In this document: one piece after another, positions 11,078-64,000 of the stretch | Position numbering within the stretch: position 1 is the first letter of the stretch | How the letters are laid out: each line of letters begins with the position of its first letter | Assembly: GCA_035528115.1 (NCBI GenBank) | Contig: DATKZF010000003.1 | Location: 551,089 to 615,088 of the forward strand | Reading direction: 5' to 3' | Length of the DNA: 64,000 bases | Source: Candidatus Bipolaricaulota bacterium | GTDB lineage: Bacteria > Patescibacteriota > Patescibacteriia > UBA11705 > DATKZF01 | Made by a program: the position numbers and the translations under genes | Notes under the pieces: generated by a model | Databases searched by the model: none | Told to the model about the DNA's origin: nothing | The model's input: the letters and a program-made list of their open reading frames with translations, nothing else

Positions 11078-11164
11078 TGGTGCCGCCGGTCGGAGTTGAA
11101 CCGACATGAACGTTAGTTCACACGATTTTGAGTCGTGCGCGTCTGCCAATTTCGCCACGGCGGC
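11078..11164 (-). tRNA. tRNA-Leu (anticodon CAA), type II with a long variable arm; CCA is encoded
   Basis: The reverse complement gives GCCGCCG acceptor, CACGA-cTCAAaa-TCGTG anticodon arm, a long variable arm, and a GTCGG-TTCAACT-CCGAC T-arm. Confidence 0.75.
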
Positions 11165-11402: not shown

Positions 11403-11544
11403 ATTTTATTGTCGTGCGCGCCTGCCTGCTCCTCGGGTCTGCCTTCGACGGCCCTGAGGGGCCGCTCAGGCCCTCGAAGGGAGCGACCTCGCCACTCGGC
11501 CGTGAGCTCGTGGCCGAACGGGAGTCGAAGACCGGCAGGCAGGT
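11403..11544 (+). repeat. GC-rich palindromic repeat element (B-module family)
   Basis: cctgcctgctcctcg...ctcgccactcggccgtgagctcgtggccgaacgggagtcgaagaccggcaggcagg, with inverted ends cctgcctgc/gcaggcagg. Related copies are at 20321, 57950 and 62020. Confidence 0.7.
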
Positions 11545-11605
11545 CTGCCAATTTCGCCACGGCGGCCTGCAAACAATATGGATACTATACAGTAAATGAT
11601 GAAAA

Positions 11606-13979: not shown

Positions 13980-14324
13980 TTCAAAGACGATGTTGAAAAA
14001 TCCGACCGAGCGTCGGATTTTTTTGTTGTCGAATGAAAAAGCGGAGAGTCAAGCTCTCCGCTGGGGATGGATTTGAATTTTTGTTTTGTAGAATTTCTTT
14101 AGCGGAAAAAGCGGAGAGGCAATTTTTCCGCTGGGATTGGATTTGGGTTTTTGCCCAATGAAAAATTTTATTAGCAGGCGCAAAGGCTTTTTATTGGTGT
14201 GTATTTTTTCCCTTACCAGCGGAGAGCTTGACTCTCCGCTCATGGATTTATTTAAAATAAATAGCCGAGGTTCCTTGTTAGAAACCTCGGCCAAACGAAC
14301 GTGTGCGCGACTCGCGGTCATCGC

Positions 14325-16199: not shown

Positions 16200-16382
16200 A
16201 CAAAAAAACCCACTTTTTGGGTGGATTTTGAATATTAAATTGGGTGTTACAAATTACATTCACTATTTAGCTCCTGTTTGTATTGTTACGAAATTACATT
16301 CACTTATAGCCTTATGCCATAGAAGATTGTAATTTGTAACAGATAACCAAAAGCTAATTAGAATCTTGTAATTCGTAACAAT
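16200..16382 (+). repeat. AT-rich intergenic repeat array (gttacgaattacaa family)
   Basis: Contains the conserved aaattacattcactaaatag and gtaattcgtaac blocks shared with at least nine other intergenic regions. Confidence 0.6.
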
Positions 16383-16795: not shown

Positions 16796-18250
16796 TTAGA
16801 TTGATTTCTTAGTTGAAATTATTTTTTTCCAAGTTTGTTTTTTGAAACTGCCGATGTGAGCCTTGGCGTTTCTGGTTTTAACGAATTTGAGCCATTGCGG
16901 ATTGGGGCCTTTTCTGTTTTTATCGAGAGTGATCTCGACCACATCGCTGTTTTTCAATTTGGTTTCCAGAGGCACGTGAATGTCATTGACGTAAGCGCCG
17001 CCGCATTTATTGCCGACGTCCGAATGGATTTGATAAGCGAAGTCAATCGGCGTGGCGCCGTCCGGCAAATCAATGACATCGCCTTTGGGCGTGAACACGA
17101 AAATTCTATTTTGGAAAAAGTCGATTTTTAATGTTTCCAAAAATTTATCGTCGTCTTTTATTTCTTTTTGCCAATTGGCCAATTCTTTGACCCAGGCGAT
17201 GTCTTTTTCCTTGATGCCTTTTGATTCTTTGTAATGCCAATGAGAGGCAATACCGTATTCGGCCTGATTGTGCATTTCTTGAGTTCTGATTTGGAATTCG
17301 ATCGGTTCTTGATTGTCTCCGAAGACGGTGGTGTGCAGCGAGCGGTAGCCGTTGGGTTTGGGTTGGGAAATATAATCCTTAATTTTGCCTTTGATCGGCT
17401 TCCAGAGACTGTGAATGATGCCGAGCGTGGCATAGCAGTCGGCGACGTCTTTTAAAATGATTCGCGCGGCCACCAGGTCGTAAATGCGGTCAATGTCTTT
17501 GTTGCTTTTCATCAGTTTTCTGTACAAACTGTAATAATGTTTGGTGCGGCCGTAAGCGTCAATGTATTTTATTTTATTTTCGATCAATTTTCGTTTTAAT
17601 TTTTTCAGCATGGCGTCCATGGCGCGCTGTTTGAATTGCAATCTTTTCTTGATCAAATTTTCAACCCAGATGTATTCATCGGGAAAGGCGTATTTAAAAG
17701 ATTCATCTTCGAGTTTGGCTTGCAATTCTCCGATGCCCAGGCGGTTGGCGATGGGCGCGTAAATTTCCAAAACCTCCATGGCGATTCTTTTTTGCTTGTT
17801 GGCGGGCAGGGCGTAGAGAGTGCGCAAGTTATGCAGACGATCCGCGAATTTGATGACAATGACTCTGATGTCTCTGGCCATGGCCACGAACATTTTTCTC
17901 AAATTTTCGACATATCGCTTCATGCCTCGGTATTTGACCGTGCCCAGTTTGGTGACGCCTTCCACCATGCCGGCCACGTCGTCCCCGAAATTCTTTCTGA
18001 CATCTTCCAGCGTGTAGGTCGTGTCTTCGGGCACATCATGAAGCAGGCCGGCGATGATCATGTTGGTGTTGACTTTCAGATCGGCCAGGTTTTGCGCTGT
18101 GGCCAAGGCATGATCGATATAATCCACGCCCGTGGCGCGGCGCTGGCCATCATGCGCTTTTTTCGCGAATTCATAAGCCAGTTCCACCATTTCCAGGTCG
18201 GCTTTGGGATTGTACTTTTTTATGGTTGTGAGCAGTTTTCTAATGGTCAT
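16796..18250 (-). CDS. rel: Bifunctional (p)ppGpp synthetase/hydrolase Rel (HD-Synth-TGS; lacks the long C-terminal regulatory region)
   Basis: Intact HD motif LLHDVPEDT, synthetase motif YRSLHTTV, and a TGS domain. Confidence 0.8.
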   Translation of the reverse strand: MTIRKLLTTIKKYNPKADLEMVELAYEFAKKAHDGQRRATGVDYIDHALATAQNLADLKVNTNMIIAGLLHDVPEDTTYTLEDVRKNFGDDVAGMVEGVTKLGTVKYRGMKRYVENLRKMFVAMARDIRVIVIKFADRLHNLRTLYALPANKQKRIAMEVLEIYAPIANRLGIGELQAKLEDESFKYAFPDEYIWVENLIKKRLQFKQRAMDAMLKKLKRKLIENKIKYIDAYGRTKHYYSLYRKLMKSNKDIDRIYDLVAARIILKDVADCYATLGIIHSLWKPIKGKIKDYISQPKPNGYRSLHTTVFGDNQEPIEFQIRTQEMHNQAEYGIASHWHYKESKGIKEKDIAWVKELANWQKEIKDDDKFLETLKIDFFQNRIFVFTPKGDVIDLPDGATPIDFAYQIHSDVGNKCGGAYVNDIHVPLETKLKNSDVVEITLDKNRKGPNPQWLKFVKTRNAKAHIGSFKKQTWKKIISTKKSI

Positions 18251-20304: not shown

Positions 20305-20450
20305 CGTTGTCATCTCGACCGCCTGCCTGCTCCTCGAGTCTGAGCTCGCCACTCGGCCGTGAGCTCGTGGCCGAACGGGAGTCGAAGACCGGCAGGCAGG
20401 AAGTCGTCCGAAGCCGCGGCGAAGGATGACGAAGTGGAGAGAGCTTTTCC
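20305..20450 (+). repeat. GC-rich modular element, full A-B-C copy (MITE-like)
   Basis: Module A cgttgtcatctcgacc, module B palindromic cctgcctgc...gcaggcagg, module C aagtcgtccgaagccgcggcgaaggatgacgaagtggagagagcttttcc. Confidence 0.7.
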
Positions 20451-27636: not shown

Positions 27637-28227
27637 AAAGTTATTTTAATTTATCACAAATTTTTGAAATTACAAATAATTACGAATTGAGTTATCTAAG
27701 CTGAAGCGTTTGTATTGACAATTCCAATAAGCTTGTGCTATTTTAATCATGCGCACGCGGCTGGGTGCGCGATGTCAGCTTTCCTGCGAATCGGCCGAGG
27801 ACGATTCGCAAGCTGCGCCAGCGCCGCAAACATCCGCCTCTACCCACATCGTTTTTCCCTCTGGGGCCTCGGCCTTCTGAACCCGCTCGACTCTCATGTC
27901 TTGCGGGTTCTGTCTTTTAAATTACAAATAATTGGGTCGAAGAGGAGAATCTATGTTTTGGTTTAACTGTTTTGTCAGTAATCGGTAAACAGTAAGCCGT
28001 CAAAATGACACAGAAGAGCAGAGAGTCGAGCTCTCTGCTGGGATAGATAAAAAAGGTGTTTTGTTGGTTTATTTATTTCCTAGCGGAAAGCTTGCCTTTC
28101 CGCTCATCCCGCCAATTGACAGAACAAAAAAATCGAGCTAAGTTGAAATCGACATTGGTTCCTTTATATATAGAGAACAGCAATTTACAGGAAACACGTA
28201 AATTTAGATGAAAAATCTCTTCAAGTA

Positions 28228-31167: not shown

Positions 31168-31620
31168 TTACAAATTACGAATAATTGCATCGAATAGGAC
31201 AAGCTTGGTTTAGGTTTATCTGTTTGCTACGAATTGTTGCTTCTATGTAGCTTGCCTTTGCCTTGAAATTACGAATAATTGCATCGAATAGGACAATCTT
31301 GGCTTTGGTTTAGGTGACTTATTACAAATAATTACGAATGAGGCGGGAAAGTTGATGGCTACTTAAAAAGCTAATAAGCTACAACCTATTACAAATAGTT
31401 GCGTCTGGCAGGACAAGCTGTGTTTAGACCTTAACGTTTATTGCGAATAATTACAAATGGTTACGAATTACAATAGACTATTCAGCTTTCAGGTTATTTG
31501 TTACGAATTACAATATTCTCAGGCATAAAGTTATAAGTTAATGTACTTTGTAACAATACAAATAAAGAGCCATTTAGTGAATGTAATTCGTAACGACTCC
31601 CCGGCTTCTCTGTTTCATGC
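31168..31620 (+). repeat. AT-rich tandem repeat array (attacgaataattgcatcgaataggacaagcttgg... and gttacgaattacaat units)
   Basis: Multiple 45- to 110-bp direct repeats that share blocks with arrays at 35900, 54400, 57440 and 60560. Confidence 0.65.
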
Positions 31621-35899: not shown

Positions 35900-36230
35900 T
35901 TTTTATCTTCATTATGGAAATATTACGAATTACAATATTCTATTTAGCTTTCAGGTTATTTGTTACGAATTACAAGATTCTGTTTAGCTTCTATGTTATC
36001 TGTTACGAATTACAATATTCTATTTAGCTTCTATGTTATTTGTTACGTATTACAATCGACTATTAAGCTTTCAGGTTATCTGTTACTAATTACAATCATC
36101 TATAGCTATATGCCTTAGAATCTTGTACTTCGTAACGATCGTTTCTAAGCCAAATGGAACCTTGTACTTCGTAACAATATAAATAAAGAGCTATTTAGTG
36201 AATGTAATTTGTAACGACGCGCGGCGTTTG
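35900..36230 (+). repeat. AT-rich tandem repeat array (gttacgaattacaat units of ~45 bp)
   Basis: About six tandem units. It ends with the conserved block aataaagagctatttagtgaatgtaatttgtaacgac, which is also present at 31560-31600. Confidence 0.7.
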
Positions 36231-45412: not shown

Positions 45413-45479
45413 TGTTGTCATCTCGACCGAAGTCGTCCGAAGCCGCGGCGAAGGATGACGAAGCGGAGAGATCTTTTCC
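45413..45479 (+). repeat. GC-rich element, A-C copy (lacks the B module)
   Basis: tgttgtcatctcgacc followed by gaagtcgtccgaagccgcggcgaaggatgacgaagcggagagatcttttcc. Confidence 0.65.
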
Positions 45480-54399: not shown

Positions 54400-54720
54400 T
54401 TTGAATATTACGAATCTCTACTTCCGATAGGACAAGCTAGGTTTAGGTTTATCTGTTTTGGTTACGAATTACTAAAGCTGTTTAGCTTGCCTTGGCCTGG
54501 AAATTACGAATCTCTACTTCCGATAGGACAAGCTATGTTTAGGTTTAACTGTTTTAGTTACGAATTACTAAAGCTGTTTAGCTTGCCTTGGCCTAGAAAA
54601 TCGCGAATATCTATTTAAATTAGGACAAGCTAGGTTTAGGCCTTGTTTGTTTTGTTACAAATACAGAATTCCAAATAGCTTAGCTTGGCGATGAAAGCTA
54701 CGAATAATCTTTTTATTAAG
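54400..54720 (+). repeat. AT-rich tandem repeat array (~120-bp units, reverse orientation of the 60640-61070 array)
   Basis: The unit attacgaatctctacttccgataggacaagctaggtttaggtttatctgttttggttacgaattactaaagctgtttagcttgccttggcc is repeated. ggacaagctaggtttaggccttgtttgttttgttacaaata is the reverse complement of the units at 60700. Confidence 0.7.
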
Positions 54721-54851
54721 GAAAAAATTACGATGAGCGGAGAGACAAGCTCTCCGCTGGATAAAAAAATAGGCAATCTTTCTACAAACCCAGCAGAGAG
54801 CTTGTCTCTCTGCTCATCAATATTTATGGCCAAGATTTTTCAGCGCTTGTT

Positions 54852-57439: not shown

Positions 57440-57660
57440 ATTGTTACGAATTACAATCATCTAGTGGGCCGATTAATATATGTTACAAATTACATTCATC
57501 CATGGCTTTATGTTTGAGAATCTTGTAATATGTAACAAATAACATAGAAGCTAAATAGAATCTTGTAATTCGTAACAAATAACCTAAAAGCCAAACAGTC
57601 GATTGTAATTCGTAACAGATAACCTAGAAGCTAAATAGAATTTTGTAATTCGTAACAATA
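57440..57660 (+). repeat. AT-rich tandem repeat array (reverse orientation, cttgtaattcgtaacaaataacct... units)
   Basis: About four ~45-bp units. Confidence 0.65.
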
Positions 57661-57867
57661 TGAATAATATTGAAAAAATAGTCGTCATCTCCATCTTAAC
57701 CGTTTCCGCCGCCGCGATCGGCGCCAGCGTTTATTTTTGGCGGGACTCGAGAATAGCCGAATCCAATGCTCGGCAAGAGCGATCAACGATGTTGGAAAGC
57801 TTGTCGAATGAGGAGTGATATTATGAAGCCGGGATTGAGGTTGAGGTGTAGAAGATGGAAATTATTT

Positions 57868-58063
57868 TTGTCATTTCGACCGACGACGATAGGAGGAGCG
57901 GAGAAATCTGCTTAAAAGGAGATAGCAGATCTCTCCACTTCGTCATCCTTCGCTAACGCTTCGGACGACTTCCTGCCTGCCGGTCTTCGACTCCCGTTCG
58001 GCCACGAGCTCACGGCCGAGTGGCGAGCTCAGACTCGAGGAGCAGGCAGGCGGTCGAGATGAC
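57868..58063 (+). repeat. GC-rich MITE-like element, reverse-orientation full copy bounded by 13-bp terminal inverted repeats
   Basis: ttgtcatttcgacc at the left end and ggtcgagatgacaa at the right end enclose the reverse complement of modules C and B. Confidence 0.65.
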
Positions 58064-58104
58064 AACTTCTTTTTACTAATTACCATTTACTGATTTCTGT
58101 TTAC

Positions 58105-60496: not shown

Positions 60497-60560
60497 CAAT
60501 GTCATTGTCAGTTAGGAAAAGATCTCTCCACTGCGCTACGCTCCGGTCGAGATGACAACT
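60497..60560 (+). repeat. GC-rich element, partial reverse-orientation copy (truncated C plus A)
   Basis: gatctctccactgcgctacgctccggtcgagatgacaac. Confidence 0.55.
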
Positions 60561-61080
60561 TTTTTTAGGCTAAGGCAAGCTAATTTGTAACTATTTGTAA
60601 TAAAATCGAAAAGGCCAAAACCAAGGATAGCTTAATAGCGGCAGTCATTTGTAACATCAGTTTTTATCGCCAAGCCAAGCTATTTGGAAGCCCATATTTG
60701 TAACAAAACAAACAAGGCCTAAACCTAGCTTGTCCTCATAGCAGCAGTTATTCGTAACGTCAGTTTTTATCGCCAAGCTAAGCTATTTTGAAGCCCATAT
60801 TTGTAACAAAACAGACAAGGCCTAAACCTAGCTCGTCCTCATAGCAGCAGTTATTCGTAACGTCAGTTTTTATCGCCAAGCTAAGCTATTTTGAAGCCCA
60901 TATTTGTAACAAAACAAACAAGGCCTAAACCTAGCTTGTCCTAATAGCGGCAGTCATTTGTAACATCAGTTTTTATCGCCAAGCTAAGCTATTTTGAAGC
61001 CCATATTTGTAACAAAACAGACAAGGCCAAAACCTAGCTTGTCCTTATAGCCGTAGTTATTTGTAACGTAGTGGATAAGT
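60560..61080 (+). repeat. Tandem array of four ~120-bp AT-rich units
   Basis: The unit agcagttattcgtaacgtcagtttttatcgccaagctaagctattttgaagcccatatttgtaacaaaacaaacaaggcctaaacctagcttgtcctcat is repeated four times with a few substitutions. Confidence 0.75.
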
Positions 61081-61176
61081 CCGCTATTTTTTGTTTAGAT
61101 CAGACGATATTTTATGTTATAATAAAGATAATCCGAATGACCCGAATTCTCTGTTCGGAGGATTTGGATTATATTT

Positions 61177-61962: not shown

Positions 61963-62300
61963 TGTTACGAAGTACAAGATTCTAAGGCATATAGCTATAA
62001 TAGATGAATGTAATTCCTGCCTGCTCCTCGAGTCTGAGCTCGCCACTCGGCCGTGAGCTCGTGGCCGAACGTGAGTCGAAGACCGGCAGGCAGGCGTAAC
62101 AGATAACCTGAAAGCCAAATAGTCGATTGTAATACGTAACAAATAACCTGAAAGTTTAATAGTCGATTGTAATACGTAACAGATAACCTGAAAGCTTAAT
62201 AGTCGATTGTAATACGTAACAGATAACCTGAAAGTTTAATAGTCGATTGTAATACGTAACAAATAACCTGAAAGCTTAATAGAATATTGTAATTCGTAAC
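61962..62300 (+). repeat. AT-rich tandem repeat array with an embedded GC-rich B-module (62020-62100)
   Basis: The unit gtaacagataacctgaaagcttaatagtcgattgtaatac is repeated about five times, and the B-module cctgcctgctcctcgagtctgagctcgccactcggccgtgagctcgtggccgaacgtgagtcgaagaccggcaggcagg is inserted within the array. Confidence 0.7.
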
Positions 62301-62323
62301 ATTCCAAGTCCCGGTAAATTTCT

Positions 62324-64000
62324 ATGGATTCTTTGAGAAAAAAAACAAAAATTTTGATTTTGAGCGCGATAATGATTTTTATATTTTCCCAAATAGGTTT
62401 TTGGGGTATTTTTGTAAAAGAGGGCAGAACGCAAGGCGTGGTTTCGGTTCCGGCCGTGGAAGCGGGGCTTGGCACCAGAATCGCGCAGGCGATTGATGAG
62501 AAAGTCACGGCTTTGACCAATGTCAACGTGGAAAAAGTCTTGGATAGATTATTCAAATCATTGGTGCGCACCGCGTCAGTGCAGTTGAAAAACACTTTGG
62601 TGCAAATCGCGCAGAACGCGGCCAATAACGCGGTTGATTATTTGGCCACGGGCAATTGGGGCCAGCGTCCCATGTTCGAGCAGAGAACTTTCGCGAAATA
62701 CAAAGACGACGTGGTTAGTTCCGTCATCAATGAAACGCTTGATTCTTTGTCGGGTGAACTTTGGAAAAATTTGAATTTCGATATTTGCGATCCCGATTTC
62801 GAGGTGAAGATGCTGATTCAAAAAGACATAGCCAATCAAAAATGCAAACCCGGCCAAAAATGTCCGGGCAAGACCGGCCCGCGTTGCAATTATAAAGCCA
62901 TTTCCGGCAATTGGGACGATTTCATTTCCCAGGTTCAAAACACCGCCGGCGACGCGCTCGACGCGACTTACGCCGCTTTGGGAGCGGTATCTTTGAATTA
63001 CAATCCGGGAGAAAACGATTTCGGAGCGTTCATGAAAATAAGAGATGATGTTTTAAGCGCGGCGGCCGACGAGTACGCGGCGCAAAAAGATGACAGAATG
63101 ATCACCACGGAAATCGAGTCGCCGAAGTCATTGGTTGACCGCGTGGTATTGACGCCGAAGAGCACTTTGCAAAAAACGACCGAAGGCAGTTTGGAAAAAG
63201 CGCAGGCAGCGCAAACGGACGAATTGAAAGCGGCCGGCGATGTGATTACCGAAATTCCGGAAGCGGTTTTATCCGTGTTTATTTCCAAGTCATTCGCCAA
63301 GAGAATGGCGACGGCTTTATTTAAGCGCGTCTTGACCGGTTTGGTGAAAAAATCGGAAAGCTATAATCCCCAGCAGCAAGTTTACGAATATCAAAAATCT
63401 TCGGAAAAAGTTTCCAAAGAAGTTTTGTCCGTCGGCGTCGATTTTTCTTATGAACCGCGAGATATCAGCACGGTCGATCAATTCGTGAATTGTCCGCAGG
63501 AAAGCACTCCGGGCATTCCGAGGGGAGTCAGCGATTGCGTGATGGATCTGAATTTCGCCGAAGCGGTCAAGAGAGCGGACACGGACACGCCGCTCACGGT
63601 GGCGGAAGCCGTTGAGCAGGGATTGCTTAAAGGCAGCAAACCTTTTTACGGACCCGGCGATGAAGAAAACACCAATGTCAGTTGTTACAAAGAAGGTTAT
63701 TGCTACAATAATTTGAAAAAATTGCGCGCGGCTCGCATTTTGCCGATCGGCTGGGAAATCGCGGCGGAAAAAACAGCCGATTACGGCAATCAAACTCTTA
63801 ACGAGCTGATGGCCGCGTTCGACGAGCCGAACTCGCCTTGGTATCGATTGGTCGACCCGAATTGGGTTTTGAAAGAGCCTTTGACTCAATGCCGCGCCGA
63901 GGTCAGCGGACCGGATTTGATCGGCAGCGGCACATCCACTCGTTCGGACGTGTGCGCGGATTATCGCACTTGCGTTGACGAGACGCCGGGCGGAGAATGT
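62324..64000 (+). CDS. Large secreted/membrane-anchored hypothetical protein (3' end lies outside the window)
   Basis: An ATG followed by 559 sense codons running to the window edge was verified by manual translation. N-terminal TM (KILILSAIMIFIFSQIGFWGIF) and scattered Cys residues. It is absent from the supplied track because no stop codon lies in the window; minus-strand ORFs 62236..63889 are shadow ORFs. Confidence 0.6.
   Translation, partial: MDSLRKKTKILILSAIMIFIFSQIGFWGIFVKEGRTQGVVSVPAVEAGLGTRIAQAIDEKVTALTNVNVEKVLDRLFKSLVRTASVQLKNTLVQIAQNAANNAVDYLATGNWGQRPMFEQRTFAKYKDDVVSSVINETLDSLSGELWKNLNFDICDPDFEVKMLIQKDIANQKCKPGQKCPGKTGPRCNYKAISGNWDDFISQVQNTAGDALDATYAALGAVSLNYNPGENDFGAFMKIRDDVLSAAADEYAAQKDDRMITTEIESPKSLVDRVVLTPKSTLQKTTEGSLEKAQAAQTDELKAAGDVITEIPEAVLSVFISKSFAKRMATALFKRVLTGLVKKSESYNPQQQVYEYQKSSEKVSKEVLSVGVDFSYEPRDISTVDQFVNCPQESTPGIPRGVSDCVMDLNFAEAVKRADTDTPLTVAEAVEQGLLKGSKPFYGPGDEENTNVSCYKEGYCYNNLKKLRAARILPIGWEIAAEKTADYGNQTLNELMAAFDEPNSPWYRLVDPNWVLKEPLTQCRAEVSGPDLIGSGTSTRSDVCADYRTCVDETPGGEC

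Follow-up and report, generated by a model that had tools for sequence, protein, structure and literature searches.

Tagged hairpin repeats with nested mini-palindromes in a Patescibacteria genome, and their probable link to small GIY-YIG nucleases

The stretch considered here, which we call the window, comprises 64,000 nucleotides (nt) of chromosomal DNA (~44% GC) from a metagenome-assembled genome (MAG) of the Patescibacteria, or Candidate Phyla Radiation (CPR). It carries five tagged hairpin units, two of which make up a head-to-head dimer at 57869-58064, and four copies of a 79-nt palindrome, B, found both within units and in unrelated intergenic DNA. In our judgement the units are probably a TGTC variant of the CGTC-tagged superfamily of repetitive extragenic palindromes (REPs), with the architecture of the Neisseria NTS and SRM repeats: hairpins read as single-stranded DNA by GIY-YIG nucleases, with smaller palindromes nested in them. 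That architecture is present, but the published SRM pattern and the dimensions of the known REPs are both missed, and for this reason we file the units as a variant of the tagged-REP/SRM kind, not as members of a described family. The base unit is of a known kind; what is new is that the apex can expand, that the unit occurs in Patescibacteria, and that nested mini-palindromes, inserted without duplication, are common to several lineages. A first-pass annotation of the window had described instead a modular element, resembling a transposable element of the miniature inverted-repeat type (MITE), with modules A, B, and C combined at six loci. All six loci are present and intergenic, and the repeats are indeed non-coding, multi-copy, and modular.

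The modules themselves are real, but their boundaries were wrong. Module A (TGTCATCTCGACC) pairs with GGAGAGATC, the last nine bases of module C, so that A and the end of C make up one closing stem between them and close a single hairpin unit. In the fold, ATCTC-GA-CCG pairs with YGG-A-GAGAT. Read from its 5' end, a unit consists of an unpaired TGTC tag, a stem beginning A-T, T-A (ATYTC/GARAT), a small GA/A internal loop, a second short stem (CCG/YGG), a variable GC-rich apical hairpin, and a C right after the palindrome. TGTC precedes 5/5 window units and is invariant or nearly so in the covariance-model units described below; ATC stands at the end of every window unit except 20436-20445, which has AGC. 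A search of the window for GTCATCTCGACC with at most one mismatch gives 6 occurrences, against 0.09 expected and 0/100 shuffles. The match at 16929, counted among the copies of module A, lies inside the RelA/SpoT open reading frame (ORF) and was rejected as a chance match, leaving five real units, at 20308 (+), 45416 (+), 57869 (+), 58064 (-), and 60557 (-).

The plainest of these is the minimal 38-nt unit TGTCATCTCGACC GGAGCGTAGCGCAG TGGAGAGATCT at 60520-60557 (-), which reads TGTC-ATCTC-GA-CCG-GAGCGTAGCGCAG-TGG-A-GAGAT-CT and scores 65.4 bits (E 1e-12) with the covariance model. It had been recorded, at 60497, as an inverted C-A pair; there is no module C here, only the minimal unit and a stray inverted TGTCAT foot at 60500-60505, which suggests, as far as the letters go, a dimer with an internal deletion. 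The unit at 45416-45474 (+; 44.4 bits, E 1e-7) has a nested C (45430-45463) and no B, and is the "empty site" counterpart for the insertion of B. The unit at 20308-20445 (+) has both, with B at 20322-20400 and hairpin C at 20401-20434, and is of the P-type (TGTC, ATCTC-GA-CCG...TGG-A-GAGAG); the inverted copy at 57927-58066 matches it with 96% identity over 140 nt. That copy belongs to the locus at 57868, which was taken for a single element with a secondary insert and turns out to be two units that converge, tags outside, as a head-to-head dimer. Its left half (57869-57909, +; 40.9 bits) has the stem ATTTC/GAAAT, a compensatory change relative to ATCTC/GAGAT, and its right half (57927-58064, -; RNA fold z = -4.1) contains nested B (57972-58050) and C (57938-57971). 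The inverted termini seen at this locus do exist, with a 14/15 match between TTGTCATTTCGACC and TTGTCATCTCGACC, but they are the standard dimer architecture of the repeat family and not the terminal inverted repeats of a MITE.

The unit is not peculiar to this genome. A scan of metagenome contigs with the pattern TGTCATYTCGACC-N(12-42)-GGAGARATC gave at least 136 matches (at least 132 after removal of nested ones) in at least 120 stretches, on contigs of 32-72% GC. The only stem pair that the pattern leaves free is, in the 132 listed units, T-A in 81, C-G in 49, T.G in 2, and C-A in 0; the next pair up, which closes the upper stem, is G.T in 72, G-C in 29, C-G in 10, and A-T in 9 among the matches listed. 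From 23 units we built a covariance model, and it retrieved 178 units from 100 loci, again among the matches listed. When 150 units are aligned by the model, pairing holds in 96.8% of cells and 7/10 pairs change on both sides, values that 0/500 shuffles reach, while slid controls have at most 64% of cells paired. The first stem pairs are A-U in 144/147 and U-A in 146/147 units, with the pattern having fixed these bases for part of the sample. Since the alignment was fitted to the model and several bases were fixed by the scan, it is the free positions that carry weight. A relaxed scan returned the stem triplet in the complementary forms TTC/GAA, CTC/GAG, TCC/GGA, CCC/GGG, GTC/GAC, and TGC/GCA, together with a second unit type, TGTCATnnnGAGCG-NAG-CGAGnnnATC. 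The base following ATC is T in 80% of units, and the length of the apical part is 13-42 nt among scan matches and reaches 115 nt in the window. Few of the loci listed have any gene in common. A sub-family with a different conserved interior, TGTCATTTCGACCCCTTCG-N7-CTCAGGGTAAACTCCGGGAGAAATC, was also seen in L031, L060, L063, L064, L090, L106, L133, and L142, on contigs of 46-59% GC.

Single units are common. Where units are neighbours, the matches listed contain 52 pairs with tags outside, 17 with tags inside, and 35 in tandem, many of the tandem cases being truncated heads. No target-site duplication was found at the dimers, 37/48 of which have no matching flank base at all, as expected by chance. 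By rough gene calls, units are scarce between divergent genes (11/127, vs 22% of intergenic bases) and over-represented where the neighbouring genes are co-directional or convergent; relative to co-directional flanking genes, 42 point the same way and 43 the opposite way, which is no bias. A blastn search of the PLSDB plasmids with the unit gave chance partial matches only. As an observation apart, truncated heads stand in tandem ahead of a complete unit (e.g., TGTCATCTCGACCGAGCGGCGTTCCTTTGTCATCTCGACC...) in L048, L053, L098, L107, L119, L139, and L143, a pattern suggestive of copying that aborted repeatedly or of nested insertion immediately behind the head.

The partner of these repeats was found through the genes beside them. 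GIY-YIG is the only protein family that adjoins units in several of the listed loci selected for their units; the larger ORF clusters annotated from 763 kb around units are unrelated housekeeping families, with no Y1 transposase among them. In L025, L093, L102, L119, and L139, a GIY-YIG gene of ~95 amino acids (aa) is bracketed by units, a same-strand unit lying 40-120 nt upstream and an inverted one behind the stop codon. Cultured Acidobacteria, whose homologues were picked by protein similarity alone, repeat the layout: Edaphobacter albus has a unit 35 nt before the GIY-YIG ATG and an inverted unit after the stop, and Granulicella sp. 5B5 has inverted units on both sides of its GIY-YIG gene. 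In the Patescibacteria MAG of L015, a small GIY-YIG gene is followed by a unit, and in L150 such a gene, with a protein 69% identical to that of L015, is followed by a head-to-head dimer; a Komeilibacteria locus examined has no GIY-YIG gene. No named NCBIfam model matches the GIY-YIG proteins. This linkage emerged from the loci independently, before comparison with Chenal et al. 2025. The first-pass annotation was correct that no transposase is encoded, in that the called genes of 79 kb of the source genome (which is at least 600 kb in all) have no transposase or integrase Pfam domain on record, several of them having no Pfam match at all. In other genomes the autonomous partner is a GIY-YIG nuclease gene of ~95 aa with units on its flanks, and not a DDE transposase.

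Palindrome B, described from the start as a palindrome and as a secondary insertion into an A-C element, stands on both counts. The four copies of the window (11421-11543, 20322-20400, 57972-58050 (-), and 62016-62094) are also the four copies of the 79 kb, which holds the same five units. When the B at 20322-20400 is removed in silico, the join matches the A-C unit at 45414-45479 at 97%. The solo B at 62016-62094 (+), 79 nt of 68% GC, sits in an AT-rich 40-nt repeat, and with B taken out the joined 100 nt match 36134-36038 (-), an intact copy of that repeat, at 93% across the junction. The locus given as a plain B at 11403 does contain B, but in the form of B' (11421-11543, +), which bears a further nested 47-nt hairpin (11442-11488) and lies in a duplicated 5' fragment of tRNA-Leu(CAA); removing it restores a 33/33-nt match to tRNA-Leu at 11132-11164. 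Since all three excisions restore contiguous paralogues, B has inserted precisely, as 79 nt, into three unrelated targets, with nothing duplicated or lost. The flanks (AATT/CGTA, GCGCG/TCTG, and GACCG/AAGT, the slash marking the insertion point) have no common tetranucleotide on either strand at these three sites, and none of the three insertions has a target-site duplication. Folding of solo B as DNA gives z = -2.9, and both strands of B, and of the core described next, fold about equally well.

The host of B' deserves a separate remark. The first 33 nt of tRNA-Leu(CAA) (11164-11132) are duplicated ~250 nt upstream of the real gene, as 11411-11420 plus 11544-11566 on the minus strand, split by B'. 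The remainder of the fragment does not continue as tRNA, and it could be what is left of a decayed tRNA copy, or a duplication resembling an attachment site.

Within B lies a 30-nt core hairpin, CCACTCGGCCGTGAGCTCGTGGCCGAACGG, at 20349-20378 (+), with further copies at 11492-11521, 62043-62072, and 57994-58023 (-). A search of species-representative genomes with its central 23 nt returned 18 loci, 14 of them in Patescibacteria MAGs (labelled Kuenenbacteria, Komeilibacteria, Peribacteria, UBA10001, and SMAG_U8039) that carry the core with conserved flanks. The match is 100% over 30-32 nt in Kuenenbacteria, Peribacteria, four SMAG_U8039 loci, and UBA10001, with differing outer contexts, and 97% over 35 nt in Komeilibacteria. 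The match in L017 is ambiguous, and those in L003 and L010 are chance matches in high-GC coding DNA. In L007, a Patescibacteria contig, the match falls in rplV, where the reverse complement of the core encodes the L22 motif RPRAHGRA (203-225); this too is chance, and the L22 gene was accordingly rejected as the origin of the core.

The head-to-head dimers of SMAG_U8039 are mosaics in which the core, like B, is a precise insertion: its presence or absence varies at two positions. It occupies the loop of the 47-nt hairpin in four SMAG_U8039 copies and is absent there in L004 and in the window (11442-11488); in L004 it sits in the other dimer arm instead. A further 32-nt hairpin occurs in these dimers in two copies only. 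Separately, L005 (Kuenenbacteria, JABMRF010000053; 3365-3396) has the core in frame in the Lys-rich N-terminal region of an 880-codon ORF, where it reads ...AVRPRAHGRVAL..., a situation that resembles the in-frame Rickettsia palindromic elements.

For what such units may do, the Neisseria system is the nearest guide. There, ssnA, a GIY-YIG gene of 94 aa with a single domain, is flanked by NTS (CGTCATTCCCGCGMAVGCGGGAATCYRG) and the related SRM repeats (Chenal et al. 2025, PMC11893778). Its product, SsnA, binds the top strand only as single-stranded DNA, does not bind RNA, and makes its cut a few bases upstream; both binding and cutting depend critically on the C after the palindrome and on the three bases before it, with the C mattering most for binding (PMC11893778). 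SRMs flank 71% of ssn homologues, and the arrangement NTS-ssnA-NTS resembles an insertion sequence (IS) (PMC11893778). We infer that a GIY-YIG nuclease acts on the units in the source genome. The units would act as single-stranded DNA hairpins, recognised strand-specifically by a small stand-alone GIY-YIG nuclease (of the Ssn family or a close COG2827 relative), which would nick a few bases 5' of the tag. The order unit, nuclease gene, inverted unit would then be the IS-like autonomous form, and head-to-head dimers such as 57869-58064 and single units its non-coding derivatives. Unit apices and unrelated intergenic DNA have been invaded in turn by the smaller GC-rich palindromes (79-nt B, the 47-nt hairpin, and the 30-nt core), presumably by way of a single-stranded hairpin intermediate.

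Several observations weigh against this account, and they should be considered together. The CGTC REPs have an uninterrupted stem of 8-9 bp, a loop of 4-5 nt, and a tail of about CCA (PMC3733652), unlike the window units with their 5 bp, GA/A loop, and 3 bp, a far longer loop, and a CT tail. The published SRM pattern, HGTCWYN(0-2)YYVSBRHN(0-5)WNVSBRGN(0-2)RNCYNB, has no match in the window; it matches the NTS control but neither the minimal E-type nor the minimal P-type unit, and it has only 11 matches in L025-L144. The small units are thermodynamically unexceptional, with a DNA fold z of about -0.9. The GIY-YIG genes of L015 and L150 look, from their sequences, like the UPF0213 type rather than the Ssn type, and in the unit-dense SMAG_U8039 locus the adjacency of a GIY-YIG gene could be due to chance. 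The 79 kb of the source genome yielded no GIY-YIG gene, and a search seeded with a Patescibacteria GIY-YIG protein gave nothing on the source contigs among its best 120 matches. Lastly, we know of no GIY-YIG nuclease of the Ssn-type family that has been shown to insert DNA, and the copying of units, B, and core by such an enzyme is unproven.

Could a different enzyme be at work? In a REPIN-like scheme, the units would be REPs and the dimer at 57868 a REPIN, mobilised by a RAYT (HUH Y1, IS200/IS605 type) through single-stranded DNA at the replication fork. The prevalence of inverted doublets without target-site duplication would suit such a scheme, as would a hairpin with an unpaired 5' tag, like that of the GTAG REPs, and the central GCGNAGC motif of the hairpin, a sequence known to form an unusually stable DNA mini-hairpin. 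We nevertheless consider the scheme unlikely, given that the tag is TGTC and not GT[AG]G, that GIY-YIG alone adjoins units in several of at least 120 loci, with no Y1 transposase in the annotated larger ORF clusters, and that the three insertion sites of B have no tetranucleotide in common. Di Nocera et al. likewise found no RAYT adjoining CGTC repeats (PMC3733652). A classical MITE, that is, an IS with a DDE transposase that was deleted internally and moves its terminal inverted repeats by cut and paste, is largely refuted and deserves very little credence. The first-pass annotation inclined to it, and what survives is the picture of short, non-autonomous, multi-copy, intergenic elements with B inserted, and the 14/15 match of the termini at 57868. 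The mechanism was wrong: none of the 48 dimers or three B insertions has the target-site duplication that had been proposed as a check, single units with one terminus are common, the termini belong to hairpins with compensatory changes, and where such termini enclose a coding partner, this is a GIY-YIG nuclease of 95 aa.

The structured RNA that was offered as the alternative to a MITE finds little support. Units and B would, on this reading, be transcribed and serve, for example, as 3' stabilisers, attenuators, or protein-binding hairpins, and the strong covariation (with G.U at one stem pair in 85/147 units), the enrichment between co-directional and convergent genes, and the TTTTCC after three window units are what one might look for in such RNAs. 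We rate it as improbable all the same. A search of Rfam 15 with the window, single units, and seven metagenome loci yielded tRNAs only at the gathering score, and weak microRNA-like chance matches only at E up to 10; orientation to the flanking genes is even, and either strand of B and of the core folds about as well as the other. The unit is conserved in sequence as well as structure across 32-72% GC, which points to a protein reading bases, and SsnA does not bind RNA (PMC11893778). A last rival turns the history around and has an ancestral A-B-C composite lose hairpins by replication slippage, with B and core immobile. Palindromes are indeed prone to deletion, the two A-B-C copies are duplicates of one composite, as their identity of 96% over 140 nt indicates, and the stray foot at 60500 suggests just such a loss within a dimer. 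We hold this to be very unlikely as a general explanation, for B occurs alone in two contexts where nothing of A or C is seen, its flanks joining exactly into a paralogue of the 40-nt repeat and into the 5' sequence of tRNA-Leu, and the core occupies different positions in otherwise homologous dimers. Deletion is thus already contradicted for B and the core; for C and the 47-nt module it is possible.

If tagged hairpins read by an Ssn-type nuclease are the correct description, then a "MITE-like" oddity is re-filed under a repeat system characterised only recently. The published SRM pattern misses a very abundant branch of that family, with a bulged stem and an expandable apex, on contigs of 32-72% GC that include Acidobacteria and Patescibacteria. 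In Neisseria, the pair of repeat and nuclease restricts incoming single-stranded DNA. Patescibacteria, with their reduced genomes, are believed to depend on taking up DNA, and the window encodes DprA and pilin-like proteins; a similar role is conceivable here and can be tested. The clean insertion of palindromes of 30-79 nt, identical between distant lineages, poses a concrete mechanistic question, and literature searches found no earlier description of such insertions in Patescibacteria; nor did those on Patescibacteria or CPR with MITE, REP, REPIN, or palindromic repeats find anything pertinent, and looking up literal stretches of the sequence brought up unrelated papers only. A bolder proposal, which we regard as doubtful for now, is that the 30-nt core, the 47-nt hairpin, and the 79-nt B form a hierarchy of mobile elements in Patescibacteria, inserting precisely and without duplication into the hairpins of SRM-type repeats, into tRNA-like DNA, and into AT-rich repeats, and kept identical across classes by one conserved enzyme that would read and paste them as single-stranded DNA. 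This enzyme could be the small GIY-YIG nuclease in the part of a transposase-like factor. Were this true, such ultra-small mobile palindromes would add a new form of DNA mobility, found in organisms whose genomes are minimal.

Some features of the surrounding DNA may help others who work on these genomes. The window encodes FtsA/Z, NrdD, PrfB, KsgA, ParAB, DprA, RelA, and tRNAs, and the closest named relatives of its KsgA are from Falkowbacteria, Kuenenbacteria, and Parcubacteria. A second assembly of the source genome (JGI Ga0307379_10000002) is 100% identical and offers no polymorphism. In the nearest genomes (~60% KsgA identity) the intergenic regions are short and the elements absent, at a distance too great for this to prove insertion. 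Tandem repeats fill intergenic DNA at 60592-61106 (103 nt, four copies) and at 54402-54690 (96 nt, three copies), the two being related to each other in inverted orientation; the intergenic regions near them measure 360-690 nt, vs 7-150 nt at equivalent positions in relatives. One relative (L021, 9180-10010; 59% KsgA identity) carries a different GC-rich hairpin, CTCGGGGAATCGCAGATTCCCCTCGGCAGTAGG, in several copies around its PGA_cap-KsgA genes, from which we conclude that related genomes have small hairpin families of their own.

Further repeats in the window are AT-rich 40-nt tandem units (TGTAATTCGTAACAnATAACCTnAAAGCnAAATAG...), present in both orientations in many intergenic regions (16291-16381, 31454-31600, 35919-36180, 57440-57700, and 62095-62340). 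We considered and rejected TIGR-Tas arrays for these, since TIGR units are 36 nt long, with two repeats of 8-12 nt, spacers of 9 nt, and an adjoining Nop-domain gene, and the window has no Nop gene. Five hairpins of the form AAGCGGAGAG-N5-CTCTCCGCT (14035-14242, 28012-28060, and 54736-54760) have GCGGAGAG in common with the tails of the units and may be dimers minus both feet. A 59% GC island (14-16 kb), in which one gene has only a weak Band_7 match and the other none, is bordered by three of these hairpins, and a 56% GC island (28-29 kb), whose tested ORFs have none, by one.

Compared with known systems, the units stand closest to two. The CGTC-tagged REP superfamily of Di Nocera et al. 2013 includes the Neisseria dRS3 and the Rickettsia RPE-4 and RPE-6 repeats and has been reported in Proteobacteria, Chlorobi, Bacteroidetes, Spirochaetes, and Thermotogae; its CGTC tag is "changed to TGTC in many repeats," stem positions 1 and 2 are complementary A-T, head-to-head dimers predominate, and no transposase is associated (PMC3733652). 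The window units are alike in their unpaired tag of the CGTC/TGTC/CCTC type, in A-T at stem positions 1-2, in dimers mostly with tags outside, in the want of a dedicated transposase, and in occasional intragenic copies (here the core of L005). The likeness to NTS and SRM repeats lies in the [C/T]GTC directly 5' of the palindrome, the AT...AT ends, and the C that follows (CGTC-AT-TCCCGCG...CGCGGGA-AT-C vs TGTC-AT-CTC...GAG-AT-C), in tens to hundreds of intergenic copies, and in units that bracket a ~95-aa single-domain GIY-YIG gene in other genomes. The difference lies in a stem broken by the GA/A loop and in an apex that is a variable hairpin of 13-115 nt instead of a loop of at most 5 nt; Patescibacteria are not mentioned in the main text of the NTS/SRM paper (PMC11893778).

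REPINs and BIMEs with their RAYT have in common with these repeats the inverted doublets of tagged hairpins, the mosaics with other motifs, and a single-copy gene flanked by its own repeats in the manner of a REPtron. Their tag is GT[AG]G where ours is TGTC, and their enzyme is an HUH Y1 protein, not GIY-YIG; the fixed tetra- or pentanucleotide target of the IS200/IS605 type is likewise absent at the three insertion sites of B. For the nested palindromes, the cyanobacterial small dispersed repeats (Elhai 2008) come to mind, which are reportedly 20-80 nt long, GC-rich in AT-rich spacers, and inserted into one another and into hairpins. The GC clusters and double-hairpin elements of fungal mitochondria, also GC-rich and 20-80 nt long, insert into one another and into hairpins as well. 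Both are unrelated to the window hairpins in sequence and in host, and, unlike either, the palindromes described here have SRM-type units as their insertion hosts and a 30-nt core that is identical across Patescibacteria lineages.

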